Of a stretch of DNA of 64,000 nt, positions 5,816 to 30,598 are shown one piece after another. The notes under the pieces are model-generated. The model saw only the letters and a list, made by a program, of their open reading frames with translations, was not told the DNA's origin and did not search any database. Position numbers and translations under genes: made by a program. Numbering within the stretch: position 1 is the first letter of the stretch; every line of letters begins with the position of its first letter. The DNA lies in the NCBI GenBank assembly GCA_963836935.1, contig CAWILM010000038.1, positions 62,784 through 126,783 of the forward strand, written 5' to 3'. The DNA is from an uncultured Acidimicrobiaceae bacterium. GTDB taxonomy: Bacteria > Actinomycetota > Acidimicrobiia > Acidimicrobiales > Bog-793.

Positions 5816-8800
5816 GGACTGGTTCGGGTCCGCGTCCGATCTATTCGAGGATGCGAGCTCAGTCCACGTCGTGCTGATGGGGCAGTCCGGCTGCCGCGCG
5901 TCAGTCATCGTGCCCGCCCCGCGACCCGGCCGCCCCTCGCCCTGAGTCACGATCGGGTCCGGCGGCGAGGCAGATCCCGGTTCCGGAGAGCCAAGGACGG
6001 ACTTCGGCCGGCGTCTTCGCCTCGGCGGGAACAGAAGGAGAACGAGCGCGAGCACGCCCACGCCACTGGTGATGACGCCCAGCTTTGCCAGCTTGGCGGT
6101 GTAGACCCAGGTCACGGTGAACCTGCCGGCTGGGACCGGGACCGCCTGGAGTATCCCGAGCTGTCTCACCCGCACGGTCACCGACGAGCCCCCCCCGATG
6201 GGGGTGAGCCGCGCCGCCCAGCCCTTGTCGTAAGCCTCGCTTCGGACCAGCACCGCCGGGATCGGCGTCGAGACGACCGTCTCCGGGTTCTGCCACGCCT
6301 GGACGGGAGGGGTAACCGAGCGAGCGAGCGGGAGTTGCGGGGCAAGAGGTGTCGTGGATCCTGCGGGCTCGACCCACGACGCTCCCCGTATGCGCGTGTT
6401 GGTGAACACGAGGAGCCCGCCGATCTCGGTCTGGTATCGCCATTTCGGTGGTTCGAGCACCCCTTGGAGAACCTGGTTGAGAACGAGGCGGTGTGTGAGC
6501 GGACCCGCGTTGACCGCCATCGCATGCACGGTGGTCACTTCGACGGCACCTATGGCGGCCGAGGTGCTGCTCGGAGCTGCGACCCGGAGTCCGTACGCGA
6601 CCCGACCGTTCAGCATGACCTCGGCCTGGGCGTCCCTGACCGGCACACGACGGTCGCCAACAATCTGGTTGCGACCATTGAGGAGGCCGATCACGACCGT
6701 GCGCGGTGCCGCCCGTTTGTAGGGCAGGACCACGATGGTGACCGAGTGGAGAGCGAGAGGCCCCGGGAGCATCCACGTCGACGAGCGCCCCTCGGAGAGA
6801 AGGAACGGCGGAAAGTGTGGCAGCGGCTTGTCGGGCGCGATGGCGTCCAGTGCCATGGCCACCCGCTCGGTCCCGGGCGGAACCGGCGTTCCTTGCGCGA
6901 CCGGGATCGGTCCGTTGTCCGGGATCTCCGTGACCAGGTACTCGGGAAGTGTCACCAGCTCCTTCAGGTTCAAGATGTCAAGGTCAGGGTGTGTGAGCGC
7001 GACCGGCTGCAAGTTCTCGACGTCATGGGCCCCGGTGGCGAGTTGGTAGCTACCGGCGACAGCGGACGAGTACCCCTGGACGCTTTGGAGCTGGTGCAGG
7101 ATCCCGAGACTGAAAGGGCCGAGCGCGAGGATCGTCCCGCGGAGACCGGGCGGCAGGCTTTGCGCGGGGTTGAAGATCGCATAGCGGCCTTGAGGTCCGA
7201 GCAGCTTCGCCAGGGTCGTGACGGCGGTGTTGTTCTTTGTGATGGTGGCTTTGGCGGGGAATGTGTACGACCCGTTGAGGACGCACAGCAACACATCGGC
7301 GAGGACGACGGTGGTCACAAGCTTGCGGCAACCGCTCGGGCCGAGACGGGGCGCGCGCCAGACAAGCAGAGCAGCTCCGGCCGAGATGACGAGCACCGCG
7401 GCGAAGTACGGGCTCAGATGGACGGCGAGATGCGGGTGGTAGACGGAGACGCCGAAGCCGCGCTGAATCGATCGTCCCAGCACGTACGCGGCGAGTATGA
7501 GGAGGGCCACAATGCCTACTGGCACGAGCCCGGCGAGACGTTCGTCGCGCGTGAGTCCCGAGTCGGCCTTCGGTGCCGGAACGGGCCCGGCGCGACGGCT
7601 TACGGCAGGAGACCTCAGCACGTCGACGAACACGGCGAGCAGCACCGCGAGCGCGAGGTCGACGATCACGGCGTTGCGGTTCTGGAGACGCTGGCCACCG
7701 TAGAGGGGAATGTCCACGAGAATGTGGCCGAGGGGAGTGCTCGCGCCGGCCGAGAGCAGGGCGCCCTCGAGGATCAGCGCATACCAGACCCCGAGAGGCC
7801 TCTCGGTCGTGCCGCGGCGCATCGCCCGCCTGAAGAGAGCAAAGGCGGCCACGAGCGGCGCGATGCCGACGGCGTAGCTCAGCTCGGGAAGGTTGTAAGA
7901 GCCCACAAAGCCGGGCAGTCCGAACGTCCCGTTGCCGCCGACCAGGAAGGGCACGAAAAGCAGCGCCAGGTCGTGCCACGACAACGATCCGGCGGAAAAG
8001 CGGGTGAACGTGACGGCGGCCCGTTCGGACTCGTGCAGGAAACTGAGCCCCGGCAGCCACTGGGCCGTGGAGAGGATAACCGCGAGGAGAGCGGCCACCA
8101 CCACGCCGATGCCGGCGACGGTGACACGCCTGCCCGTTCGCCGCGCCCGCCAGCAAAGAGCAAGGAAGTACGTGAGCACGATGAAAGCGATGCTGGAGGC
8201 GGCGCGAGGATCTCCGGCCAGCACCACAAGACCGCCGCAGCCACCCAGCAAGGCGATCCAGCGCCGCGCCGTGCGCGGCTCGGGATGGGTTCCGAGCTCA
8301 TGGACGGCCAGCAGCATCCACGGAGTGAAGCTCATGCCCTGCACCAGGCCGAGGTGCACGGCCTGGCCGCTCATGAACCCGGTGTAGGTGAACGTCAGGG
8401 CGCCCAGCAGCGCCGCGAGCGGTGAGCAGCCGAGACGGCGCAGGAACACGTGCATCCCGATGCCGCAGACAATCGGTACCGCCGCGACATTGATCGTCCA
8501 GGCCGCGCCGGCCGGCAGGATGGCGAAGAGCCAGGTGCCCGGGTACAGCGATCCCGCGTTCCATCCCGCGAGCAAGGGCGTTCCGCTCCATATATACGGG
8601 TCCCACAGGGGCAGGTGACCGTGCCGCAACAGCTCGCCCGACAGGACTCTCAGCGGGTAGTTCTGGGTCAGGTTGTCCGCCGTGCCGCTCCCGGGGAAGA
8701 GAGGTCGGCCGACAAGTGCGGGCGGGATTCCCATCAGCAGAGGTATCGCGACGAAAAGCGCGACCGCCCACTTGTCGGCTCGTGCGACATGGGACCAGCG

Positions 8801-19568: not shown

Positions 19569-19871
19569 GCTCCGCGCGGCGAAGCGGAGCGCCCCGAGAG
19601 GGCTCGCCCGCGGTTGGCGGTTGGGACCTGTGGCTCGAAGGGGATGTGGTGCGTCCCCGACGTTCACGGCGACACCGCTCCGGCAGGGGTCAAGGTCAGC
19701 TCCGTCGCCGGGCACAGCCAGATTCTGTCCCGTCGAAAGCGTTTCTGCCTGTCGCAAGCTTTGCCCAGGGCAATCCCGGATCTCGTGAGGCAAACGCCCG
19801 GTTCGGGTGACGATTCCCGACGGGCGCCGCGCCCTAGCCTGCGTGAGGTGGCCGGGTTGACGTGCCGATGG

Positions 19872-21200
19872 GTGCGCGCGCGCAAGCGCGTGGGGAGGGT
19901 CGCCCTCACCATCGTCGCCACAGGCGCGCTCGCGGGTTGCCAGGCTGTTGCGTCCCAGAACCGGCACGTGACGACGAGCACGTCCGCGACCACGACCACG
20001 CGCGCTCCGGCGACCACCACGACGAGCGAGACCCCGCCGACGACGCTGTCCGCGTCCCGACCGCGTCCCAGTCTGCGTCTCGCCGATGGGTCACTTGGCA
20101 ATCGGGCCACCCGGTCGGCGTGCTCGCTTCTGGGTCGGGCGCAGATCCGCGATGAGTTCGGCGGTCCCGTCGGTCCGGCAACGCCCACATACCCGTACTG
20201 CCAATGGCTGGTCGGCCGCGACGCTTTCCTGGCGTTGTCCGTGGAGCCACGGACCTCGTTCCAGGACGCCACCCAGTACGTGACCACTTTGGAGAGCGTG
20301 AGGGGCCTCGGCCAGCAGGCGATGATCGCCAATAACAGATACCTCTACTTCACCGCCGCGGGCACGACGTACTGGTTGCTGTGGCAACAGGTTGGCGACT
20401 TCTCGCAGCTGCACACGGCCCAGCTCGTGGCCGTGGCTCGGGACGTGCTCGCGCGCGCCTCGCGGGAGGCGGCCTGGGCCACCAGGGCGCCGGTGCCGGG
20501 TCCGCCCGGACCTGCGATCTATTTCGCCGGGGACTCGACGGCTGCCGGGCCCGAGTGGGCTTGGGACACGTACCACGCCACATCGCCGGAGTTGAGGACC
20601 CTGGCGGAGTACCAGGTCGGCTCTGGCCTTGTGAGCCCGGAGTACTTCGACTGGCAACGTCATCTGCTCGCCGTCGTCGCCGCGCGACGGCCCAAGCTTG
20701 TGATCTACATGGGAAGCGCCAACGATGGGCAGGACTTGATCGTCGACGGCGCCTTCCAGCCTGTCGGGAGCCGCTTGTGGAAGAAGGCCTACGCCGACAG
20801 GGTCGCCGGGATCATGACCTCGCTCGTCAAGGAAGGCTCCGAGGTGCTTTGGATCGGCGAGCCGGCCATGAGCGACCCCCAGTTGTCGCAGTACATGCAG
20901 GTGATCGACCAGGTCTGTGCACAGCAAGCCGCCCGGCACCACGGGGTTGCATTTGTCGATCCAGGCGCCGTTCTAAACGGTCCGAAAGCTAGCTACGAGA
21001 GTGCTGTTTTGATCCACGGTCGGCCCATCGTCGTGCGCCTTGACGGCGTGCATCTCAACATGGCGGGAAGCGTCCTTCTTGCCGACTACATAGCCGGTTA
21101 TGTGACTCGGCTCTTAAGCGCCCGCGCGGCAGAGAAGAGCCATCCTCCGAGCCCGGAGGCTCCCTCCGGTGTCCCGATTTTTCACTTGAGGCATCAGTGA
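19872..21200 (+). CDS. lipoprotein with N-terminal DUF3558-like domain and C-terminal SGNH/GDSL-type hydrolase (DUF459-like) domain
   Basis: In ORF 19614..21200. GTG 19872 or 19890 precedes the lipobox VALTIVATGALAGC. A Thr/Pro-rich linker follows, then IYFAGDSTAAG (block I-like GDS) and VHLNMAG near the C-terminus. Confidence 0.6.
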   Translation: MRARKRVGRVALTIVATGALAGCQAVASQNRHVTTSTSATTTTRAPATTTTSETPPTTLSASRPRPSLRLADGSLGNRATRSACSLLGRAQIRDEFGGPVGPATPTYPYCQWLVGRDAFLALSVEPRTSFQDATQYVTTLESVRGLGQQAMIANNRYLYFTAAGTTYWLLWQQVGDFSQLHTAQLVAVARDVLARASREAAWATRAPVPGPPGPAIYFAGDSTAAGPEWAWDTYHATSPELRTLAEYQVGSGLVSPEYFDWQRHLLAVVAARRPKLVIYMGSANDGQDLIVDGAFQPVGSRLWKKAYADRVAGIMTSLVKEGSEVLWIGEPAMSDPQLSQYMQVIDQVCAQQAARHHGVAFVDPGAVLNGPKASYESAVLIHGRPIVVRLDGVHLNMAGSVLLADYIAGYVTRLLSARAAEKSHPPSPEAPSGVPIFHLRHQ

Positions 21201-21580
21201 GACGCCCAGGCACCAGGGTTGACTGCCGTCGCCCGCCGGAGCCCGGACGTCGACCTGAGAGGTACCCGACCTGAGGCAGCGGCGGCGCGGGGAGTCATTC
21301 CCCAACCGCCGGGCAGGGGGCGGGGGCGGCGGGCGGTCGTCCTTGAACTCGACGCGGGCGTCGGGGAGACTTGGGCACCGGTCAGGATCCGTGCGGGCCT
21401 CCGGGACTTTCTGGTCCTGGGCGCCCCGACGGTGTCGTGGGCCGCACGGTTCCCGGCCGGGGGCTGGCGCGATGGTGCCGGTAGCCTCGAGGTGAGTTCT
21501 ACCGGCCCTCGGGAAGACGAGCGATTGGGGAGAGATCGTCGCCCCGGGGCGGCCTGCAGGCAGAGGGTGGGAGGTATCCA

Positions 21581-22933
21581 ATGATCACGGACAAGTTGTC
21601 GACTCCGCGAACAGATGGGACGGATCAACCCGGGCCGTTGCCCTCGCAACCCGCGCCGGCCTCGCCGGGACGTCGTCGCGCGGCCGCAGCACTCTCTCCG
21701 CTGGTCCGCAACCTGCTGGGCGATCGGATCCCCGTCCGGTTCGAGTTTTGGGACGGGAGCTCCATCGGGCCGCAAGACGGCGCCGGCACCATCCATGTCC
21801 GCTCGGCGGACGCGTTGCGGCGCATCCTCTGGGCTCCGGGCGAGCTCGGCGTCGGCCGCGCGTACGTCGCAGGCGACATCGAGGTCGAAGGTGACATCGT
21901 CGCCGTGCTCGCGGGCCTCCACGAAGTTGCCCCCCGGGACCTGCGAACGGGCTTGCGGGCCCTGCCGGTGGCCTTCGGCGCCGCTTATCACGCCGGTGCC
22001 ATAGGCCTTCCCCTGCCTCCGCCGCCCGAGGAGGCCCGCCTGGCAGGGTTCCGCCACTCCCGGCGTCGGGATGTCCAAGCGGTCACTCACCACTACGACG
22101 TCGGCAATGAGTTCTATGAGCTCGTGCTCGGGCCGTCCATGACCTACTCGTGCGCCCGTTTCGCCGAGCCGGAGATGAGCCTGGAACAGGCGCAGGAATC
22201 GAAGCACGAGCTGATCTGCCGCAAGTTGGGCTTGCGTGAGGGCAAGCCACTGCGACTGTTGGATGTCGGTTGCGGTTGGGGATCGATGGCGATGCACGCC
22301 GCCGCCAGCTGCGACGCGACCGTCGTCGGTATCACCTTGAGCGAGGAGCAAGCCGGCTACGCGAGAAAGCGCGTGGCCGAAGCGGGCCTCGGCGACCGCG
22401 TGGAGATCCGCGTGCAGGACTACCGGGCCCTGAGCGGGGAGCGTTTCGACGCCATCTCCTCGATCGGCATGTTCGAGCATGTCGGCAAGGTCCGCACGGG
22501 CGAGTACTTCGAGACCTTGCACGGTCTCCTTCAGCCCGGGGGAAGGCTGTTGAACCACGCCATCTCCGAGCAAGGGGGGTCGAAGCTCGGGTCGCGGAGC
22601 TTCTTCGGTCGCTACGTGTTCCCCGACGGCGAGCTGCTCGACGTGGGCGATGTCGTCTTGGCGATGGAACGCGCCGGGTTCGAATGTCGTGACGTGGAAT
22701 CGCTCCGCGAGCATTACGCGCTCACCTTGCGCTGTTGGGTTGCGAACCTGGAAGCGAACTGGGAGGCGGCCGTCAAAAGGGTCGGCCTCGCCCGGGCGCG
22801 GATCTGGCGGCTGTACATGGCCGGGTCAGTCATCGGCTTCGAAAGCGGCGGCGTCGCCGTGCACCAGGTTCTGGGCGTCGTGCCGAAGGACGCCAAGAGC
22901 GGGATGCCACGCACCCGTTCCGCCTGGGGCTGA
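21581..22933 (+). CDS. cyclopropane-fatty-acyl-phospholipid synthase family SAM-dependent methyltransferase
   Basis: 450 aa. RBS GGGAGG before the ATG. HYDVGNEFYELVLGPSMTYSCA and SAM motif LLDVGCGWGSMAMHAA are typical of the CFA/mycolic-acid cyclopropane synthase family. Confidence 0.85.
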   Translation: MITDKLSTPRTDGTDQPGPLPSQPAPASPGRRRAAAALSPLVRNLLGDRIPVRFEFWDGSSIGPQDGAGTIHVRSADALRRILWAPGELGVGRAYVAGDIEVEGDIVAVLAGLHEVAPRDLRTGLRALPVAFGAAYHAGAIGLPLPPPPEEARLAGFRHSRRRDVQAVTHHYDVGNEFYELVLGPSMTYSCARFAEPEMSLEQAQESKHELICRKLGLREGKPLRLLDVGCGWGSMAMHAAASCDATVVGITLSEEQAGYARKRVAEAGLGDRVEIRVQDYRALSGERFDAISSIGMFEHVGKVRTGEYFETLHGLLQPGGRLLNHAISEQGGSKLGSRSFFGRYVFPDGELLDVGDVVLAMERAGFECRDVESLREHYALTLRCWVANLEANWEAAVKRVGLARARIWRLYMAGSVIGFESGGVAVHQVLGVVPKDAKSGMPRTRSAWG

Positions 22934-23154
22934 AAGGCCTGGGACCTCTTCGCGGGCTGACTCGAGTTCCGGGAGGGGCAGACGGCGGGCGAACCGTTCT
23001 GTCCGATTTGTGACAGCATCGGCCTGCGGTCATCTTGGACTACTGACCGATGCCTTGCTGCCCAGGGTCTTTCGGCCCTGGTCCGTCTCCCCGGCGAACC
23101 GTTAGCTGGATCCATGTGTGCAGATCGAAGCGCGCGGCGAGGCGGGGAGGCCTG

Positions 23155-25650
23155 ATGTCCAAGTTCTCGAGGCGATCATTTCTCGCCGGCAGCGCCGCCG
23201 TCGCGGGCGGGTTGCTGGTGGCGGACCACCTGCGTTTCCTGGAACCGGCCCCCGGTGACCTCGTGAGCTCCGAAGAGTTCCTGACGGGCAAGGAGGTCGT
23301 CTACCGGACCGGCCACTCGAACAACTGTGACGGTGCTTGCGGGCACCTCGTCCACGTCACAGACGGGCGCGTGACGATGATCGGCCCGGCGAGCTGGGGG
23401 ACGACGACGGTCGCGGGCGAGCAGGCGCCCACGTTCCACCCGCGGATCTGTCTGCGGGGCCTCTCGCAGATCTCCAACACTTACAGCCCGGACCGCATCA
23501 AGTATCCCTACAAGCGGGTGGGGCCACGCGGATCGGGCAAGTGGCAGCGGATCAGCTGGGACGAGGCAACCACGCTCATCGCCACGAACTTCAAGCAGAT
23601 TCAAGAGAAGTACGGGAAGACATCTGTCTGGATAGCCCCTTACACGGGCTCTCTCGCCTTGATCGAGGGCGTCGTCGGGGCCGGCTTCCGTTTCGCCAGC
23701 GTCATCGGCGCCTCCGCGGGTGACTCCGAAGGAGACAACGAAGGCGACTCGGCCACACCGGCGGGCTGGAATTACGTCCTTGTCGACCCGACCAACCCCT
23801 CCAACGCCGGCGGGTTCTTCACCGGTCACGAGTCGGTCGACTTCATGAATGCCAGGACGATCGTCTTCTGGGCCAACAATGTGGCCGAGACCTCGATCCC
23901 GGACTGGCGGATCATGTGCGATGCGAGGGACCAGAACGGCACCAGGCTCATCGCCGTGGACCCGCGCTTTACGGTGACTTGTGCCCAGAGCGACGATTGG
24001 GTGCCCATCAGGCCGGGAGCCGACACCGCCCTCATCGACGGCATCATCAACCAGGTGTTCCAGAACGGCACCTACGACGCCGACTACATCCGCGCCAACA
24101 CGGTCGGGCCCTATCTCATCGACCCGCGGACCGAGAAGTGGCTCCGCGCAAAAGACGTGATACCCGGCGCGAAGGACGACTACGTGGTGTTCGACGAGTC
24201 GGACAACAGGGTCAAAGCGGCGAGCGACGCTTCGCTCAAGCTCGCGGCGGTCCTCGGGACACACGCGGTCGCCGGCCTTGAGGCGCGGACCGCTCTCCAG
24301 GCGCTCGCGGACATGGCCGCGAAGTACACACCGGAGTACACCGCGAAGCTGACCGATGTGCCGGCCGCGCAGGTCGTCGCTCTCGGCAAGGTGTGGGGGT
24401 CGAGCAAGCCCCTCGCCGTGAGAGTCGGCTTCGGGCTCTCGCACTGGTACCACGGCGACTTGCACATGCAGGCGTTGTTGACCTTGCAGGCGATCACGGG
24501 CAACATCGGGGTCCACGGCGGGGGAGTGACCACCTTCGCCGGCGGCATCGCGGCGACTTTCGCTCCCTTCGACCTGTTCGACTTCTGGGCGCCCAAGGGC
24601 ACCAGCATCTACACCCTGCTGGAGCCGATGGAGTTCTGCGACGCCGTCGAGAAGGGCAAGCCCTTCCCCGTGAAGGCTGCCTGGTTCCCGATCGACAACT
24701 TCGCCCAGCAGATGTCGGACCGGAACCGTGTCATCGCGGCCATGAAACAGCTCGAGTTCATCGTCGTCTCGGACTACTCGCTGACGGCGACCGCCGACCT
24801 CGCGGATGTCGTGCTGCCCGCCTGCACGTACTTCGAGAAGACCGACCTTCTCTCCTCCAACAACTTCTACCTGCAGTACATGCCGAAGATCATCGACCCT
24901 CTCTTCGAGTCGAAGTCCGATCTCGACGCGATCAACCTGATCGCCGAGAAGATGGGCTACGGGGAGTACTTCACCGAGACCCCCGAGGCGTACTTGAAGA
25001 AGATGATGCGCCTCGGCCAGCCGGACGCCGACGCGTCGGTGAAGGGGCTCACCTGGGAGCGGCTCACGACCGAGGCAGTTCGCCTCAACACCGATCCGAT
25101 GCCGTATGTCCCGTTCTTCAACCAGCAGTATCCGAGCAAGAGCGGGAAGATCGAGTTCTACGTCGAGATGCTCGTCCCCTACGAGCAGGCGCTCTGCGAT
25201 CACAAGGAGCCCATCGAGGCTTCACCGACCAACCCGCTCTACGAGAAGTACCCGCTCGTGTTCCTCTCGACCCATACCAAGTTCCGCACCCATTCGCAGT
25301 TCGTCAACCTGCCGTGGCTGAAGGAGCTCAACAACGGCGGTGACGGCTTCTTGGAGATCAACCCCCGCGACGCCGCGCCCCGGGGCATCGCCGATGGCGA
25401 CGTCGTGCGGATCTACAACGACCGGGGCCAGATGAAGGTGCGAGCCCGGCTCACCGAGTCGATGAAGCCCGGCGTCGTCAACTGTTACCAGGGTGGCTGG
25501 GACACGATCCGTGTCAAGCACTACCTCGAGGGTCATCCGAACAACCTGACCCATCAGATCGCCAAACCCGCCCAGTCGCTCATCCCGAACTTCCCTTCGA
25601 ACGCGGCGTACTACGACGTCCTCGTCCAGGTCGAGAAATCAGGAGCGTGA
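23155..25650 (+). CDS. molybdopterin (bis-MGD) oxidoreductase catalytic subunit, DMSO-reductase (MopB) family, TAT-exported
   Basis: In ORF 23050..25650. ATG 23155 gives the twin-arginine signal MSKFSRRSFLAGSAAVAGG. FS0-type motif HSNNCDGACGH...C (H-x3-C-x3-C-xn-C). MopB-like blocks IAVDPRFT, WVPIRPGADTAL and a C-terminal beta-barrel domain (INPRDAAPRGIADGDVVRIYNDRGQM). Substrate not assignable. Confidence 0.85.
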   Translation: MSKFSRRSFLAGSAAVAGGLLVADHLRFLEPAPGDLVSSEEFLTGKEVVYRTGHSNNCDGACGHLVHVTDGRVTMIGPASWGTTTVAGEQAPTFHPRICLRGLSQISNTYSPDRIKYPYKRVGPRGSGKWQRISWDEATTLIATNFKQIQEKYGKTSVWIAPYTGSLALIEGVVGAGFRFASVIGASAGDSEGDNEGDSATPAGWNYVLVDPTNPSNAGGFFTGHESVDFMNARTIVFWANNVAETSIPDWRIMCDARDQNGTRLIAVDPRFTVTCAQSDDWVPIRPGADTALIDGIINQVFQNGTYDADYIRANTVGPYLIDPRTEKWLRAKDVIPGAKDDYVVFDESDNRVKAASDASLKLAAVLGTHAVAGLEARTALQALADMAAKYTPEYTAKLTDVPAAQVVALGKVWGSSKPLAVRVGFGLSHWYHGDLHMQALLTLQAITGNIGVHGGGVTTFAGGIAATFAPFDLFDFWAPKGTSIYTLLEPMEFCDAVEKGKPFPVKAAWFPIDNFAQQMSDRNRVIAAMKQLEFIVVSDYSLTATADLADVVLPACTYFEKTDLLSSNNFYLQYMPKIIDPLFESKSDLDAINLIAEKMGYGEYFTETPEAYLKKMMRLGQPDADASVKGLTWERLTTEAVRLNTDPMPYVPFFNQQYPSKSGKIEFYVEMLVPYEQALCDHKEPIEASPTNPLYEKYPLVFLSTHTKFRTHSQFVNLPWLKELNNGGDGFLEINPRDAAPRGIADGDVVRIYNDRGQMKVRARLTESMKPGVVNCYQGGWDTIRVKHYLEGHPNNLTHQIAKPAQSLIPNFPSNAAYYDVLVQVEKSGA

Positions 25651-26385
25651 TCGCCATGGCTGCCAAGAAGACCTCTGTTCCGCACCACGTCATGGTGATC
25701 GACACGAACCGCTGCGTCGGCTGCTGGACGTGCGCGGTCGCCTGCAAGCAGATCAACAACGAGCCGCTCGGCTACTGGTGGAACCGGGTCCTCACGACCG
25801 CTCCCAACGAGTCGACGAGCGCGAAACCACCGGCGAGCGACAACATCGACGTGCCTTATGGCACCTATCCCGACCTCGAACTCGCGTACTTGCCTGTTGC
25901 CTGCCAACACTGCAACGACGCGCCCTGCGTGAAGGTCTGCCCGGTGCAGGCGACCTTCCGCCGCGACGACGGCACGGTGCTCGTCGACTTCAACCGGTGC
26001 ATAGGTTGCCGGTACTGCATGGCGGCGTGCCCGTATGGAGTCCGGATCTTCAACTGGGGCGACTCCACCTACGCCCCCGGCGGCGTCGTCGGCTACGGCA
26101 AGGAGTACTGGACCGGAGACCGCCTCGTGTTCACACCCGAGCGCCCGAAGGGCGTGGTCGAGAAGTGCACCTTCTGCGTCGAGCGGATCGACGTCGGAGA
26201 GCTGCCGTTCTGCGTCGAGGCCTGCCCGCTCGGCGCCCGGATCTTCGGTGATCTGAACGACCCGGACTCACAGGTGAGCAAGCTCGTCAACAACGGTGGC
26301 GGCGAGCAGCTCCACCCGGAAGCTCGGCACCGACCCGAACGTCTACTACCTCCCGGTCGCGCGGCGCGTGCCGGGCGAGAGCTGA
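25647..26385 (+). CDS. 4x[4Fe-4S] ferredoxin-type electron-transfer subunit (DmsB/PsrB-like), apparent frameshift near the 3' end
   Basis: Four Cys clusters: CVGCWTCAVACK, CQHCNDAPCVKVCP, CIGCRYCMAACP, CTFC...CVEACP. Start is GTG 25647 (GTGA overlap with the A subunit) or ATG 25656 after AGGAG. The conserved C-terminal KLGTDPNVYYLP lies in another frame, ending at TGA 26383-26385 just before RBS GAGGAGG and ATG 26396. As assembled the ORF runs on to 26660. Confidence 0.8.
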
Positions 26386-26395
26386 GGAGGCGGCC

Positions 26396-27661
26396 ATGGC
26401 CACAACAACCGCAGCGATTCCCGTCCGCTCGACACGTGCCTACCGGCCGATCTGGGGCTGGTACGCCGCCCTCGTCGTCCTCATGGCCTGGGGTCTTGCT
26501 GCCTGGATCTACGAGCTGCACTACGGGCTCGCCGCGACGGGCATGCGCGACGTCGTGTCCTGGGGGATGTACATCTTCACGTTCGCGTTCTTCATCGGCC
26601 TGTCAGCGGGCGGGCTCATCATGGCCTCGAGCGCGGAGGTGTTCGGTATCAAGGCGCTGAAGCCTCTCTCCCGCCTCGGCGTGCTGTCGGCCGCGGCGTG
26701 CGTGACGGTGGCCGCCCTCATGATCATCCCCGACCTCGGCCAGCCGTTCCGGGTCATAAACATCTTCATCCACCCGAACTGGACCTCGCCGCTCATTTGG
26801 GACATCTTGATCATCACCGTCTACTTCGTCTTCTCGGTCGTTGACCTCTACGTTCTTCAGCGTCACGCCGCCGAGCCGACCCGCTGGCGCAAGCGCATCC
26901 GGGTGCTCGCCTATGTCGGGCTGCCCACCGCCGTCCTGCTCCACTCGATAACGGCCTGGATCTTCGGGCTCCAGATCGCCCGGAGCTGGTGGAACACCTC
27001 GCTCATGGCCCCGCTCTTCGTCGTCTCGGCGGTCCTGTCCGGTACGGCGCTCGTCACACTGCTGGCGCTGTGCGCGCAGCGCTTCGGAAAGGTCGAGCTG
27101 TCCGAGGACACGAGGAGGTGGCTGCGCGGCTTCATCATCGTCAGCCTCTTCGTCGACCTGTTCTTCGTCGGTGCCGACTACATCACCGTCCTGTGGGGCA
27201 ACGTCCCGGCCGACCGCTCGGCACTCAACCTCGTGCTGCCGGGAGGACCCTGGGCCTGGCTCTTCTGGGTCGAGTGGATCGTCGGAGGCGTCGTCCCCCT
27301 GGCCTTCCTGCTCGTGCCGCGCCTCAAGAAGATGCCCGGGGCGCTCGGGCTCGCCTCGGTGCTGGTCATCATCGGCGTGTACGCCTTCCGGGTCGAGCTC
27401 GTGGTCATCGGCTTCATCAACCCCCTTACCCAGTACCCGCCCGGGAACGCCGTGGGCACCTACAACGCGCAGACGACCCCGTTCCAGCTCGTCGGTCGCT
27501 ATCACCCGACCTGGGTGGAGTACGGCATCATCATCGGCCTGGTCGCCTTGTTCGCCGCGATCGTGACGATCGGCTACCGGAGCCTGCACGTGCTGGAGCC
27601 GTCGCCGGCCGGCGGCCGACACCGTGCGACCGCGGGCCCAGAGAGGAAAGCAGGCTCGTGA
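26396..27661 (+). CDS. NrfD/PsrC-type polytopic membrane anchor subunit
   Basis: 421 aa, about 10 TM helices. The N-terminal WGWYAALVVLMAWGLAAWIYELHYGLAATGMRDVVSWGMYIFTFAFFIGLSAGG pattern is typical of NrfD-family quinol-interacting subunits. Confidence 0.85.
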   Translation: MATTTAAIPVRSTRAYRPIWGWYAALVVLMAWGLAAWIYELHYGLAATGMRDVVSWGMYIFTFAFFIGLSAGGLIMASSAEVFGIKALKPLSRLGVLSAAACVTVAALMIIPDLGQPFRVINIFIHPNWTSPLIWDILIITVYFVFSVVDLYVLQRHAAEPTRWRKRIRVLAYVGLPTAVLLHSITAWIFGLQIARSWWNTSLMAPLFVVSAVLSGTALVTLLALCAQRFGKVELSEDTRRWLRGFIIVSLFVDLFFVGADYITVLWGNVPADRSALNLVLPGGPWAWLFWVEWIVGGVVPLAFLLVPRLKKMPGALGLASVLVIIGVYAFRVELVVIGFINPLTQYPPGNAVGTYNAQTTPFQLVGRYHPTWVEYGIIIGLVALFAAIVTIGYRSLHVLEPSPAGGRHRATAGPERKAGS

Positions 27662-28335
27662 CGACCGGGACGCCCGTTTCCAACGGTGCCGCGGAGCGTC
27701 GCCGGACCGGTGAGGTCCCCTCCGGCATCGACAAGGCGGACGCGGAGACGATCGTGGTCGCCGTCGACCTTCTCTCCCACTTCTGGAGCAGGCCGGTCAC
27801 CGACGAGGTCGCGAACTGGGCGGCGGCCCGCGACCTCGAAGCCGAGACTGACAGCCGAATCTCGTCGGACCCTTTGCGCGAGCCCGTAAGAGTGCCGGAT
27901 CTCGCGGAAGTGCCCCGCTTGCTCGACGAGTACGAACGCCTTTTCGTCGGCCCCGGCCAAGTGCCGTGTCCACCCTATGAGTCGTTCTGGCGCGAGGACG
28001 TGCCCGTGGACATACGCCGGACCCTCATGGGACCGTGCACGGCCGAGCTGAAGCTGATCTACTCGGACCTCGGGCTGCAGATGTCGTCGCAATCGGTCGA
28101 GTTGCCGGATCACATCGCCATCGAGTTCGAGGCCATGGCCTACGCGTTGTCTTTCGAGGAGAGCGCGCCGCTGGCGCGCCGGATCTTCGAGGAGCACCTC
28201 GCCCGGTGGCTGCCGCGGCTGTGCCGGGCTGTCGCCCACGAGGCGGCGGAGGCCTTCTACCGAGATCTCGCGGTTCTCACGCTCGACTGGCTGGCTGCGA
28301 TCAAGCGTCACTTCGCCCTCGCCGAAACGGGCTGA
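27658..28335 (+). CDS. TorD/DmsD-family redox-enzyme maturation chaperone
   Basis: GTG 27658 overlaps the NrfD stop (GTGA). About 225 aa, soluble. LLDEYERLFVGPGQVPCPPYESFW and ELPDHIAIEFEAMAYAL match the TorD/NarJ-like family as I remember it. Confidence 0.7.
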   Translation: MTTGTPVSNGAAERRRTGEVPSGIDKADAETIVVAVDLLSHFWSRPVTDEVANWAAARDLEAETDSRISSDPLREPVRVPDLAEVPRLLDEYERLFVGPGQVPCPPYESFWREDVPVDIRRTLMGPCTAELKLIYSDLGLQMSSQSVELPDHIAIEFEAMAYALSFEESAPLARRIFEEHLARWLPRLCRAVAHEAAEAFYRDLAVLTLDWLAAIKRHFALAETG

Positions 28336-29891
28336 TGCAGTCGCGGGAGATCCCTGTCGTCGTCATCTGTGGCGACGTCGGGGCCCCGCCCGTGCCTGTT
28401 CGCCTTGGCGAGCTTGCGGCCCGGTTGCGCCGCGAGCTGCCCGGAGTGACCGTGTGGTTTCCGGGCGCGATCTGTGCAACCCCGGCGCCCCTGCTGGAGG
28501 GGCTTGCGGCCGCCGGGCCCACGCGTGTCGTCGTCGGTTGCCGGGCTGACCCGCAACGACAGGGAGAACTCCGGACCCGTTTGCGCCGTGCAGGAGCAGC
28601 CCCCGCCGGCACGGAGATCGTCGACCTCAGGACGGCGGACGGCTGCAGCGCGACGGTGGCCCTCGAGCAGTCCGTCGCCCTTGTGCGCGCCGCGGTGGCG
28701 CGTGTGGCCGTGGCCGACGTAACCGCGCCGGTGCGGGAGCGGACGAGCTTGTCGGTCGGGGGAGTGACGCGCCGGTCCCTGCTGCGCGGCGTCAACACGG
28801 CCCGCCATTACGTCGCGGTCTGGCGGCCGGAGCGGTGCACCTCCAAAGCGGGCTGTACAGCCTGTGTTCTGTCCTGCCCGCACGCGGCGCTGCGTCAACA
28901 GGGCCGTCGCCTGGTCGTCGACGGCGATCGCTGCACGGGCTGCGGCGCCTGTGTGGCCTCCTGCCGGAGGGCCGCGCTCGTGCTTGCGGGCGCCGAGCTC
29001 GAAGGACTGGGCGCCGCCGCTGCCGTTCTCGGCGCGGCCGCCCGGCGGGACGGGTCGGTCGTCGGCGTCTCGATCGTCTGCCGGCACGTTGAGCCGGTGC
29101 CCCCGATTGGGGAGCCCTGGCTCGGGCTGCGCGTGCCGTCGGTCGCGATGGTGACCGCAGGGTGGATCCTGCAGCTCGTCAGTGTCGGAGTGAACGTCCG
29201 GGTCCTCGGTTGCAAGGACCAGGACTGTGCGACCCGCGCCGGCGATCTCGGGGGTTTCGTCCGCGCCCTTCTGCAGGCGCTCGGGTTCTCGGACGGAGAG
29301 CCGGCTTTCATAAAGGCCCCCGCCAGTCGGGCGTCCGCTCCGACCGCCTCGGCACCTTGGGGCGATGGGATCGAACTGCGAGAGCCCGAAGCAACCCTGC
29401 AGGCGCTGTCGGCTCTCGGAGCACTCCGGCCGGCGCCCGCACCGTGGCGGGTGGGAGGCCCCGGATGCTCGCTCGGAGTGGTGGGGGTCGACCCGGCCGG
29501 TTGCTCGCTTTGCGAGGTCTGCGTCGGCGTCTGCCCGACAAGCGCCTTCGCGACCGAGCGCGACGGGGGAGGGGCTCTCCAGTTGCGCGTCGACTCGAGT
29601 CGCTGCCGCGGTTGCGGGGCCTGTGTCCCTTCGTGCCCGGAAGCCGCCATAACCGTGGCGAGGGCGGCCGACGCCGGATTCCTGTCGAGAAGAAGCCGAG
29701 TGGTGGCAACGGGACCGGTTGTGAGCTGCGAAGGCTGCGGCGTCCCGCTCGTCGCCGGGCCCTCGCAGGCGGCCCTGCGTCGTCGCCTCGGCGGGTCGCA
29801 CCCGAACTTGACGGCGGGCTCGGCGAGGATCTGCGCCGACTGTCGCCTCGGCGGCCGGTCAGCGACGGGGAGCCGCAGGCGCGTTACATAG
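28335..29891 (+). CDS. 518-aa signal-less poly-ferredoxin: two tandem modules (Cys-poor FlpD/MvhD-like domain plus 2x[4Fe-4S] ferredoxin domain) and a C-terminal CxxC...CxxC ribbon
   Basis: ATG 28335 overlaps the chaperone stop (TGATG). Ferredoxin motifs: CTSKAGCTACVLSCP and CTGCGACVASC, then CSLCEVCVGVCP and CRGCGACVPSCP. C-terminal CEGCG...CADC. The N-terminal halves of the two modules align with each other (VVVGCRADPQ versus RVLGCKDQDC). No signal peptide or TM helix seen. Confidence 0.7.
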   Translation: MQSREIPVVVICGDVGAPPVPVRLGELAARLRRELPGVTVWFPGAICATPAPLLEGLAAAGPTRVVVGCRADPQRQGELRTRLRRAGAAPAGTEIVDLRTADGCSATVALEQSVALVRAAVARVAVADVTAPVRERTSLSVGGVTRRSLLRGVNTARHYVAVWRPERCTSKAGCTACVLSCPHAALRQQGRRLVVDGDRCTGCGACVASCRRAALVLAGAELEGLGAAAAVLGAAARRDGSVVGVSIVCRHVEPVPPIGEPWLGLRVPSVAMVTAGWILQLVSVGVNVRVLGCKDQDCATRAGDLGGFVRALLQALGFSDGEPAFIKAPASRASAPTASAPWGDGIELREPEATLQALSALGALRPAPAPWRVGGPGCSLGVVGVDPAGCSLCEVCVGVCPTSAFATERDGGGALQLRVDSSRCRGCGACVPSCPEAAITVARAADAGFLSRRSRVVATGPVVSCEGCGVPLVAGPSQAALRRRLGGSHPNLTAGSARICADCRLGGRSATGSRRRVT

Positions 29892-29969
29892 GTGCCCGCC
29901 GTCCTTCCTTGTCCGTTGGCAATGGGGAGGCGCTTCCCATCGGCGGAGAGAGCCGACACCGGCAGGCTC

Positions 29970-30287
29970 TCACTCTGGGGTGAGGACCTCCTCGATCCAG
30001 GAATAGGCCGCCACCGCAGCGGGAAAGCCCCGCGTGGTCACCGTGAGGGCGACGACGTGGAGCAGCTCCTCAGGCGTCGCGCCCGCCTTGAGGGCCCGCC
30101 GGGCGTTGGAGCGGACAGCACCTTCGGCCATCGCCCCGATGGCGATGCCGAGCTTGACGAGGCGGCTCGTGCGTTCATCCAACGGGCCCGCGTTCGCAGA
30201 CTCCGCCAGGGCCTCGAGGTTGTGGGACAACGCGGGGAACCGGGTCCGGAATCGCGAGTAGATCTCAGGTAGGTAATGGTCTGTCAT
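29970..30287 (-). CDS. carboxymuconolactone decarboxylase (CMD/AhpD-like) family protein
   Basis: 105-aa ORF. ERTSRLVKLGIAIGAMAEGAVRSNARRALKAGATPEELLHVVALTVTTRGFPAAVAAYSW is typical of small CMD-family proteins. Confidence 0.75.
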   Translation of the reverse strand: MTDHYLPEIYSRFRTRFPALSHNLEALAESANAGPLDERTSRLVKLGIAIGAMAEGAVRSNARRALKAGATPEELLHVVALTVTTRGFPAAVAAYSWIEEVLTPE

Positions 30288-30598
30288 TGGTTCCTCCCCC
30301 TAAGCCGGTGGTCGGGCCGACTCGGCGACCGTTGGCACGAAGAGGCTACTTCACCGACCTCCCGGTCCAGCCCTCCTGGGTTCCCGGGCCGGGCCCGCCC
30401 CGCCCAGTCACGACCGGGGAGACTTGCGGGACTTACCATGACGGCTGGTCCCCCAGCATGGCGAGCGTCGTGGGCAGTCGCGACGGCGCCAGAGGATCGA
30501 GGAGATATGCCTTCGGATCTAAGGGCGTCGCCGACGGGGCGGAGAGGCTCGACTGCCCAGGACGGCGCGGTCTGCGCCGTAGGCGAGGGCCCCAGCAG

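Follow-up and report, generated by a model that had tools for sequence, protein, structure and literature searches.

The stretch of DNA analysed here, referred to as the window, consists of 64,000 nucleotides (nt) from an uncultured Acidimicrobiaceae bacterium (contig CAWILM010000038.1, positions 62,784 to 126,783). Five co-directional genes, here called g1 to g5, lie on its plus strand at positions 23155–29891; the initial annotation of this DNA had placed them so, and the list of open reading frames agrees. Judged from the encoded proteins, the operon is of the complex iron-sulfur molybdoenzyme kind. The Pfam matches bear out the initial assignment of g1 to g4 as a MopB catalytic subunit, a four-cluster iron-sulfur (Fe-S) subunit, an NrfD-type membrane anchor and a TorD-family chaperone. 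The fifth gene codes for a protein with multiple Fe-S cluster motifs, and the family that it defines is reported here. This family has at least 456 clusters, a distinct architecture, a translationally coupled and nearly constant position after the TorD gene across phyla, and it evolves fast. The g5 protein is read here, tentatively and at a likelihood slightly short of even, as a cytoplasmic accessory protein comparable to NapF and SreD, which would act with the chaperone before export of the catalytic subunit.

The position of g5 was surveyed through g5 itself and through g1. Among the loci fetched via g5 homologues, the order MopB-FeS-NrfD-TorD-g5 is kept in 16 of 16. A metagenome survey based on g1 returned 80 loci, 49 of them with enough sequence after the TorD gene to judge. 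The gene that follows TorD is a full-length g5 in 37 of these loci, a shorter or more divergent g5-like gene in 8 and ambiguous in 1; the remaining 3 (L123, L130, L132) have none. Taken together, a g5-type gene stands directly behind TorD in 45 of the 49 informative loci, and the linkage of g5 to a MopB/NrfD-type operon put forward in the initial annotation is borne out by both counts. The TorD and g5 genes overlap by 1–4 nt in the window and in L008, L093 and L094, an arrangement that is conserved across classes and phyla. L093, from a Solirubrobacteraceae metagenome-assembled genome (MAG), and L094, from an Acidothermaceae MAG, carry the same five genes, with full-length g5 homologues at E-values of 5e-69 and 2.5e-60, respectively.

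Pfam finds only generic Fer4 families in g5; no Pyr_redox/flavin adenine dinucleotide (FAD) domain, no CCG-domain and no DNA-binding or signalling domain was found by Pfam. The N-terminal sequence (MQSREIPVVVICGDVG) has no twin-arginine motif. Hydropathy and the AlphaFold2 model give no convincing transmembrane helix, the two stretches of marginal hydrophobicity being parts of confidently folded domains. A protein of 518 amino acids (aa) without signal peptide or transmembrane helix, as first described, is thus retained, and a cytoplasmic location is predicted. The four [4Fe-4S] motifs given with that description are retained in part. One of them is non-canonical (C168-x5-C174-x2-C177-x3-C181, with C174 not invariant), and 11 further conserved Cys had been missed. 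An alignment of 32 homologues shows 24 invariant Cys and one that is nearly invariant, and the protein is predicted to bind clusters.

The AlphaFold2 model built on this alignment (predicted local distance difference test score, pLDDT, 80.5; predicted template modelling score, pTM, 0.82) displays two α/β domains, each with a ferredoxin domain behind it, and then a Cys4 segment (Table 1). The top Foldseek matches of the whole model in the Protein Data Bank (PDB) are HdrA chains of heterodisulfide reductase complexes (6e-8). Residues 1–140, modelled alone, superpose on HdrA (7bkd_A/5odc_A) with a TM score of 0.70 and a root-mean-square deviation of 3.1 Å, and more weakly on MvhD (5odc_D, TM 0.45). 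With hhalign, residues 164–308 align to the ferredoxin-plus-MvhD part of an HdrA-MvhD fusion (probability 97.9%, E = 6e-13). The Pfam FlpD model (PF02662) stays below its cut-off in the middle domain (15.8 vs 22.3, E = 0.015) and has no match in the N-terminal domain. A disordered linker separates the second α/β domain from the second ferredoxin domain. The C-terminal CxxC…CxxC segment, which to the eye looks like a zinc ribbon or a rubredoxin-like element, is common to g5 and its short relatives (the L020, L028, L092 and L017 proteins). The similarity of g5 to HdrA thus takes in both α/β domains as well as the ferredoxin domains, but g5 has no FAD/thioredoxin-reductase domain, only three Cys are conserved in each α/β domain, and neither HdrB nor HdrC is encoded nearby. 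With the HdrA models of NCBIfam g5 scores 51 bits against a cut-off of 1300, and only the ferredoxin stretch aligns.

An exhaustive profile search gave 456 representatives of the g5 family at E <= 1e-30 (clusters at 50% identity), most of the 150 members listed being aligned across almost the whole profile. A word-indexed search returned only about 40 clusters. There is no Pfam or NCBIfam model specific to the family. An exact-sequence search with the g5 protein of the window gave no entry in the public collection. An apparent TorD-ferredoxin fusion (P0040) was rejected as an artefact; most genes of its contig (L011) are split, MopB and NrfD included. Many split genes, with MopB or NrfD in pieces, are seen in contigs L003, L006, L011 and L015.

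Of the five genes, g5 diverges fastest. L007 shows identities to the window of 77% in g1, 78% in g2, 76% in g3, 57% in g4 and 39% in g5, with 67% in an adjoining gene of the carboxymuconolactone decarboxylase (CMD) family. In L093 the values for g1 to g5 are 65%, 67%, 55%, 42% and 31%. The order of conservation is g1 ≈ g2 > g3 > CMD > g4 > g5 in every comparison (L001, L007, L013, L016, L093, L094). By this comparison of sequences, g5 shows a pattern that is common among accessory factors and atypical of a core subunit for electron transfer. The gene is also absent from some orthologous operons. That of Brevibacillus ginsengisoli (L092), with a g1 that is 63% identical, reads MopB-FeS-NrfD-TorD-TatA-MoaA and has no g5 after TorD.

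Relatives of g5 are found outside this enzyme as well, the shorter ones consisting of ferredoxin, MvhD-like, ferredoxin and ribbon parts. In L004/L005 (12100–17872) a second operon, directly downstream in the same MAG, codes for a Tat-type (twin-arginine translocation) MopB, DmsB, DmsC, TorD and a 346-aa ferredoxin-like protein, which is homologous to g5 residues 342–497 (30% identity, 8e-12). Two Anaerolineae loci (L020, L060) show a g5 relative after TorD together with a DmsC anchor and cytochromes c, the TorD and ferredoxin genes overlapping by 4 nt. In Georgenia ruanii (L027) the relative follows TorD in a Dms-type cluster with a DmsC anchor, and this cluster also holds a copy of the CMD gene (7186–7602, 57% identical). 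In Campylobacterales (L028) it follows TorD in a FeS-NrfD-MopB operon. The alphaproteobacterial relatives (L017/L018, 9104–12411) are 703-aa proteins with an added N-terminal region; the gene lies directly upstream of moaA and no more than 7 kb from a TorD gene and a MopB gene with a Tat signal. Finally, Brevibacillus (L092, 2988–6600 and 8001–14345) has a 308-aa relative that heads an operon adjacent to the orthologous one. This operon has no anchor and codes further for a MopB of 691 aa without a signal and for an Fe-S subunit of 201 aa.

Actinomycetota, Chloroflexota and Campylobacterota therefore have genes of the g5 type directly after TorD; in Alphaproteobacteria the two genes lie less than 7 kb apart. 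Since relatives occur with DmsC anchors (L004, L020, L060, L027) and with an anchor-less MopB (L092), NrfD is not a constant partner. The constant partners of the family are MopB and, nearly always, a TorD-family chaperone. The literature gave no report on MvhD-like proteins paired with TorD.

These observations bear on the function first proposed for the locus, a trans-membrane redox module. In such a module g5 would dock on the cytoplasmic face of NrfD, and the complex would connect the Mo site in the periplasm with a redox couple in the cytoplasm, as in Dsr/Hmc/Qmo-like systems. Co-translation of g5 with the operon and its presence in nearly all informative orthologous loci would fit, as would its domains (HdrA-N/MvhD plus ferredoxin), which are of a type that serves electron transfer in the cytoplasm. 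Modules of this type are used by QmoB and HdrA-type proteins. Among the curated models, those nearest to g2 and g3 are DsrO and DsrP. Docking is also not absurd, in that NapF itself needs the membrane protein NapH for its attachment to the membrane, according to the title of a paper cited in PMC10609526. Against this, NrfD-like subunits are devoid of redox cofactors and interact with quinones at a site on the outer (P) side (PMC8076601). The known relatives of such a module use a di-haem cytochrome b and a CCG-domain protein; in DsrMKJOP the cytoplasmic DsrK pairs with di-haem DsrM and not with DsrP (PMC8076601). Neither is encoded in the cluster or in the conserved synteny, and no further membrane protein gene is found in either. 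With a cofactor-less NrfD and neither of these proteins encoded, there is no evident electron route through the membrane to g5. Moreover, g5 displays no membrane-binding element, its relatives accompany DmsC anchors and an anchor-less cytoplasmic MopB, it diverges about twice as fast as NrfD, and orthologous operons exist without it (Brevibacillus, L123, L130, L132). The module is thus not borne out and is considered improbable.

Other biogenesis genes are found in the related clusters. A gene for an Mrp/ApbC-type Fe-S carrier overlaps the MopB start in L093 (6847–8004), tatA is part of the Brevibacillus operon given above, and moaA occurs near the cluster in L006, L007, L092, L122, L128, L138, L152, L156 and L168. 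As side observations, Mrp-like matches lie near the cluster in L125, L127, L129, L136 and L144 as well, and a small DUF6457 gene is situated directly behind the g5 homologue in a Solirubrobacter-like group (L093, 14336–14587; L135, L138, L141, L148, L153). It is found nearby in L006, L007 and L094 and is absent from the window.

The moaA genes invite another explanation, in which g5 would be a low-potential electron donor for cofactor synthesis, e.g. for the radical S-adenosylmethionine (radical-SAM) enzyme MoaA or another reductive step toward molybdenum-bis(pyranopterin guanine dinucleotide) (Mo-bisPGD), rather than for the precursor. The electron-wire architecture of g5 suits such a donor, moaA is directly downstream of the 703-aa relative (L017), and a radical-SAM gene is found behind an Anaerolineae relative (L020). 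However, the 64-kb window has no moaA near the operon, and TorD is a much more constant neighbour of g5-type genes than moaA is. MoaA is also normally served by a housekeeping flavodoxin or ferredoxin, which is its usual reductant. A donor of this kind is accordingly held to be unlikely.

The reading preferred here is that g5 takes part in maturation of the catalytic subunit before export. The products of g1 to g3 would form a quinone-linked complex iron-sulfur molybdoenzyme. MopB would be loaded with Mo-bisPGD and the FS0 cluster in the cytoplasm; export by Tat would follow, with the four-cluster subunit, which has no signal, carried along. The exported dimer would dock on the outer face of the NrfD anchor, which would exchange electrons with the quinone pool. 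The g4 product would serve as a system-specific TorD-family chaperone that retains the precursor until it is loaded. Synthesised in concert with the chaperone, the g5 product would act as a second biogenesis factor in the cytoplasm and would not be part of the mature complex. It is predicted to be a chain of up to six Fe-S centres, comprising a pair of HdrA-N/MvhD-like domains, a pair of 2×[4Fe-4S] ferredoxin domains and the Cys4 ribbon. In contact with TorD or with the precursor, it may act on the latter before export, either by Fe-S cluster delivery or repair, as reported for NapF, or by providing reducing equivalents for cofactor loading.

Several lines of evidence favour this maturation role. 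The pairing of TorD and g5 is kept in the orthologous cluster, and g5-like genes directly follow TorD in other operons (L004, L020, L060, L027, L028). Related clusters include the biogenesis genes for Mrp/ApbC, MoaA, TatA and DUF6457. The g5 sequence diverges fastest in the cluster, and the gene appears dispensable, as the Brevibacillus operon and the three g1-derived loci without it indicate. No electron path through the membrane is apparent, with NrfD free of cofactors and no haem-b subunit encoded at the locus. By analogy, NapF and SreD also provide precedents for an extra cytoplasmic polyferredoxin encoded in such operons.

NapF, a protein of the cytoplasm that has four [4Fe-4S] motifs, binds NapA and was required to reconstitute the NapA cluster in vitro, and a part in loading this cluster before export is attributed to it; some nap operons are without it (PMC10609526). 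As g5 is, it is encoded with a Tat-exported MopB enzyme and a chaperone, which in the case of NapF binds the signal peptide (PMC10609526). Unlike g5, it is about one third the size (the TIGR00402 profile has 149 positions) and has neither HdrA-N/MvhD-like domains nor a Cys4 ribbon, and the nap chaperone NapD, unlike g4, is not of the TorD family. SreD is a polyferredoxin of unknown function encoded beside the chaperone SreE (PMC3189178). The archaeal sreABCDE operons of Acidianus ambivalens and Thermoproteus tenax have the same five parts as the window operon (PMC3189178; PMC8551704). They differ in being archaeal and in that the polyferredoxin gene precedes the chaperone gene, and g5 is compared with SreD in operon composition only. 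A survey of maturation chaperones described operons of MopB, four-cluster Fe-S, NrfD and TorD-family genes in Gram-positives, Chlorobia and Archaea, and it noted "hypothetical ferredoxins" next to TorD in those fdh operons that contain this gene (PMC4464133). Its nrfD-hybA-bisC type operons show the same MopB/Fe-S/NrfD/TorD set as the window; that survey did not define a ferredoxin family, its architecture or its nearly constant position after TorD (PMC4464133). The initial annotation did not know g5 as a subunit of Dms, Ynf, Psr, Phs, Ttr, Arr or Nar systems; that no such subunit is known does not hold in view of the ferredoxins beside TorD (PMC4464133) and of NapF as a helper of a Tat-exported molybdoenzyme (PMC10609526).

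Other points weigh against a role in maturation. No experiments on any member of the g5 family were found. The architecture resembles an Hdr/Mvh-type electron wire more than a scaffold, with HdrA as the best structural match. The NapF model (TIGR00402) gives g5 only 34.9 bits, far under its cut-off of 102.2, so that the analogy to NapF is a functional one only. Presence in 45 of 49 loci would be expected of a true subunit too, and the support drawn from fast evolution and TorD adjacency is circumstantial. In addition, the short relative that heads the anchor-less cytoplasmic MopB operon of Brevibacillus could simply be an electron-transfer partner.

The last point agrees equally with a further possibility, that g5 is a cytoplasmic Fe-S protein with a redox-sensing or other unrelated function and stays in the operon for co-regulation only, or that it is the electron partner of enzyme molecules that never leave the cytoplasm. 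That g5 belongs to no curated family and has no characterised homologue would be in keeping with this. But the translational coupling of TorD and g5 is conserved across several phyla, the twin-arginine signal of g1 is canonical and conserved in homologues, and a DNA-binding or signalling domain is missing from g5. This possibility is regarded as very unlikely.

A maturation role may also extend beyond this operon. The g5 family might be a general and overlooked chaperone-coupled component of molybdoenzyme biogenesis across phyla, a wire that would reductively load or redox-check Tat substrates held by TorD, although on present evidence this wider role is thought somewhat unlikely. The family core would then consist of a ferredoxin, an MvhD-like domain, a second ferredoxin and the Cys4 ribbon, to which the Actinomycetota would add a second HdrA-N-like domain. 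An even less expected alternative is that g5-type proteins may be the cytoplasmic point of electron entry into NrfD- and DmsC-anchored enzymes.

The catalytic subunit g1 matches the Pfam families Molybdopterin (7e-51) and Molydop_binding (2e-23). The two motifs initially reported for it are confirmed. The N-terminal sequence MSKFSRRSFLAG contains a twin-arginine motif (SRRSFL) that is conserved in homologues, and an H-x3-C-x3-C FS0 motif, within RTGHSNNCDGACGH, shows no variation among 15 homologues with identities as low as 63%. The Pfam TAT_signal match is weak (17.6 vs 22.7). An acidic motif, GASAGDxxGDNxGDS (GD-x2-GDN-x-GDS), is situated at the predicted Mo-ligand position and is likewise invariant in 15 homologues. 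The top PDB relative is perchlorate reductase PcrA (4ydd/5e7o, 1.6e-64). The Asp of EGDS in g1 aligns with the Asp of YGDH in PcrA, which is the Mo ligand of that enzyme; three candidate Asp lie close together in the g1 motif. The g1 family has at least 360 clusters at E <= 1e-50, with named sources in Acidimicrobiales, Acidothermaceae, Jatrophihabitans, Solirubrobacteraceae, Gaiellaceae, Thermoleophilia and the cultured Brevibacillus ginsengisoli.

Membership in named families was judged by curated NCBIfam cut-offs and by the PDB search. None of g1 to g4 reaches the curated cut-off of a named NCBIfam model. For g1 the scores are 353 bits with dmsA_ynfE (TIGR02166, cut-off 777.7), 267 with DmsA (1600), 241 with YnfE (1675), 341.5 with DMSO_red_II_alp (TIGR03479, 984.75; residues 49–463 only), 236.9 with PhsA (694), 103.5 with TtrA (1750) and 78.7 with ArrA (1600). 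There is no curated PsrA model among its NCBIfam matches. The closest curated model to g2 is DsrO (182 bits, cut-off 200), and g3 scores 140 bits with DsrP (cut-off 350). The g3 protein matches Pfam NrfD (6e-51) and displays about 10 hydrophobic segments in hydropathy. The g4 protein matches Nitrate_red_del (2.5e-21) and falls under the cut-offs of the DmsD, type-II chaperone and TorD models.

The H-x3-C-x3-C motif and PcrA as best PDB relative point to a type-II (Nar-like) signature in g1, combined with Psr/Dsr-like partners. With the type II enzymes (PcrA, NarG, EbdA) g1 shares the FS0 motif, and an Asp of g1, a candidate Mo ligand, aligns with the ligand Asp of PcrA, but the C-terminal half of g1 is closer to DmsA/DorA. 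The partners encoded in the window are a short PsrB/DsrO-like subunit and NrfD, whereas those of type II enzymes are a NarH-type subunit and a haem-b subunit. PsrABC/DsrOP-type modules resemble the window operon in that a Tat-exported catalytic subunit and a four-cluster subunit are combined with an NrfD anchor that lacks cofactors and has about 8–10 transmembrane helices. The Mo ligand of PsrA is a Cys, and g1 differs from PsrA in its H-x3-C-x3-C motif and probable Asp ligand. Unlike the Dsr operon, that of the window has no DsrJ, DsrK or DsrM, and the scores with the DsrO and DsrP equivalog models fall short of their cut-offs. The original description as ynfFGH-dmsD / psrABC type is thus apt for the subunit composition, which is Psr/Dms-like, but not for the catalytic subunit, which is type-II-like in FS0 motif and resemblance to PcrA. 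The accompanying statement that the substrate of the Mo subunit cannot be read from the sequence stands.

The g2 gene is frameshifted in the window. Its frame-0 open reading frame, of 337 aa, continues to 26660; it ends in an out-of-frame tail of 115 aa, and its overlap with g3 amounts to 265 nt. The conserved C-terminus, LGTDPNVYYLPVARRVPGES, followed by the stop codon TGA (26383–26385), sits in the +1 frame. At about position 26320 the window shows an extra A (CCGGAAGCTC vs CCGG-AGCTC in the four homologous loci L008, L001, L004 and L007). Once this A is removed, the gene codes for 245 aa, and the sixteen Cys of the product make up four motifs. A programmed frameshift was considered and rejected, the four homologous loci being simply without the extra A, which is either an assembly error or a real, recent mutation. 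For the start of g2, ATG 25656 is more likely than GTG 25647, which overlaps the g1 stop, because AGGAG is found about 10 nt upstream and homologues are called at 242 aa. The protein matches Pfam Fer4_11 (8e-21) and has no signal peptide of its own.

The junctions were first described as GTGA at 25647, a ribosome-binding site with ATG at 26396, GTGA at 27658, a TGATG and a 10-nt gap. All of these are found again, but the gap, between g2 and ATG 26396, is real only after correction of the g2 frameshift. In full, GTGA occupies 25647–25650 at the g1/g2 junction and 27658–27661 at the g3/g4 junction, TGATG occupies 28333–28337 between g4 and g5, GAGGAGG precedes the g3 start, and g5 ends with TAG at 29889–29891. 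A promoter and terminator scan of 22700–30500 gave no plus-strand site and none between g4 and g5, a result that is uninformative for a high-GC actinobacterium. The G+C content of the window is about 68%. Rfam shows no family in the window or upstream of g1, the molybdenum cofactor (Moco) riboswitch included.

The CMD gene (Table 1) adjoins the cluster in 15 of the 16 loci fetched via g5 (L001–L015; not L016). In the window it converges on the operon; the more distant loci have it in co-directional orientation, with an overlap in L006. Upstream of g1 (19614–22933) are a DUF459/GDSL-lipase-like gene and a gene for a cyclopropane-fatty-acid-synthase-like methyltransferase, both syntenic with the operon in the closer Acidimicrobiaceae loci (L001–L008). 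The 221-nt gap before g1 has no divergent regulator in the window; a divergent gene of about 220–250 aa is present there in L001, L006 and L007. The nearest relatives of the window genes come from Acidimicrobiaceae/Acidimicrobiales MAGs of bog and peat origin. No paper on this Acidimicrobiia cluster was found in the literature.

Table 1. Features of the molybdoenzyme operon and its downstream neighbour (positions of the window)
Feature	Position	Strand	Basis
g1, MopB catalytic subunit, predicted Tat-exported, 831 aa	23155..25650	+	Pfam Molybdopterin, Molydop_binding
g2, four-cluster [4Fe-4S] electron-transfer subunit, 245 aa corrected (242 aa from ATG 25656)	25647..26385	+	Fer4_11
Frameshift site in g2	26316..26325	+	alignment with L008, L001, L004, L007
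g3, NrfD-type integral membrane anchor, 421 aa	26396..27661	+	Pfam NrfD, hydropathy
g4, TorD/DmsD/NarJ-family redox-enzyme maturation chaperone, 225 aa	27658..28335	+	Pfam Nitrate_red_del
g5, multi-cluster Fe-S protein, predicted cytoplasmic, 518 aa, TGATG-coupled to g4	28335..29891	+	Fer4 families, AlphaFold2 model
g5 residues 1–140, α/β domain, HdrA N-terminal/MvhD fold; C12, C47, C69	28335..28754	+	AlphaFold2 (pLDDT 85.6), Foldseek
g5 residues ~160–215, first 2×[4Fe-4S] ferredoxin domain; C168/C174/C177/C181 and C200/C203/C206/C210	28812..28979	+	Fer4_7 and others
g5 residues ~240–315, second α/β domain, MvhD/FlpD-like; C249, C293, C298	29052..29279	+	hhalign
g5 residues ~385–440, second 2×[4Fe-4S] ferredoxin domain; C390/393/396/400 and C424/427/430/434	29487..29654	+	Pfam Fer4 (2.6e-15), invariant Cys
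g5 residues 465–503, CxxC…CxxC; C465, C468, C500, C503 invariant	29727..29843	+	reading by eye
CMD-family (carboxymuconolactone decarboxylase/AhpD-like fold) protein, 105 aa, no Cys, convergent	29970..30287	-	Pfam CMD (1.6e-11)

The enzyme encoded here, a type-II-like g1 with Psr/Dsr-like partners, is common in peat and soil Actinomycetota and may represent an unrecognised respiratory activity there, its substrate being unassigned. Tat-exported molybdoenzymes receive Fe-S clusters and Mo-bisPGD before they are exported, a process that is understood only in part and in which the functions of NapF and SreD are still open. The g5 family offers a concrete and testable candidate for a missing biogenesis step.

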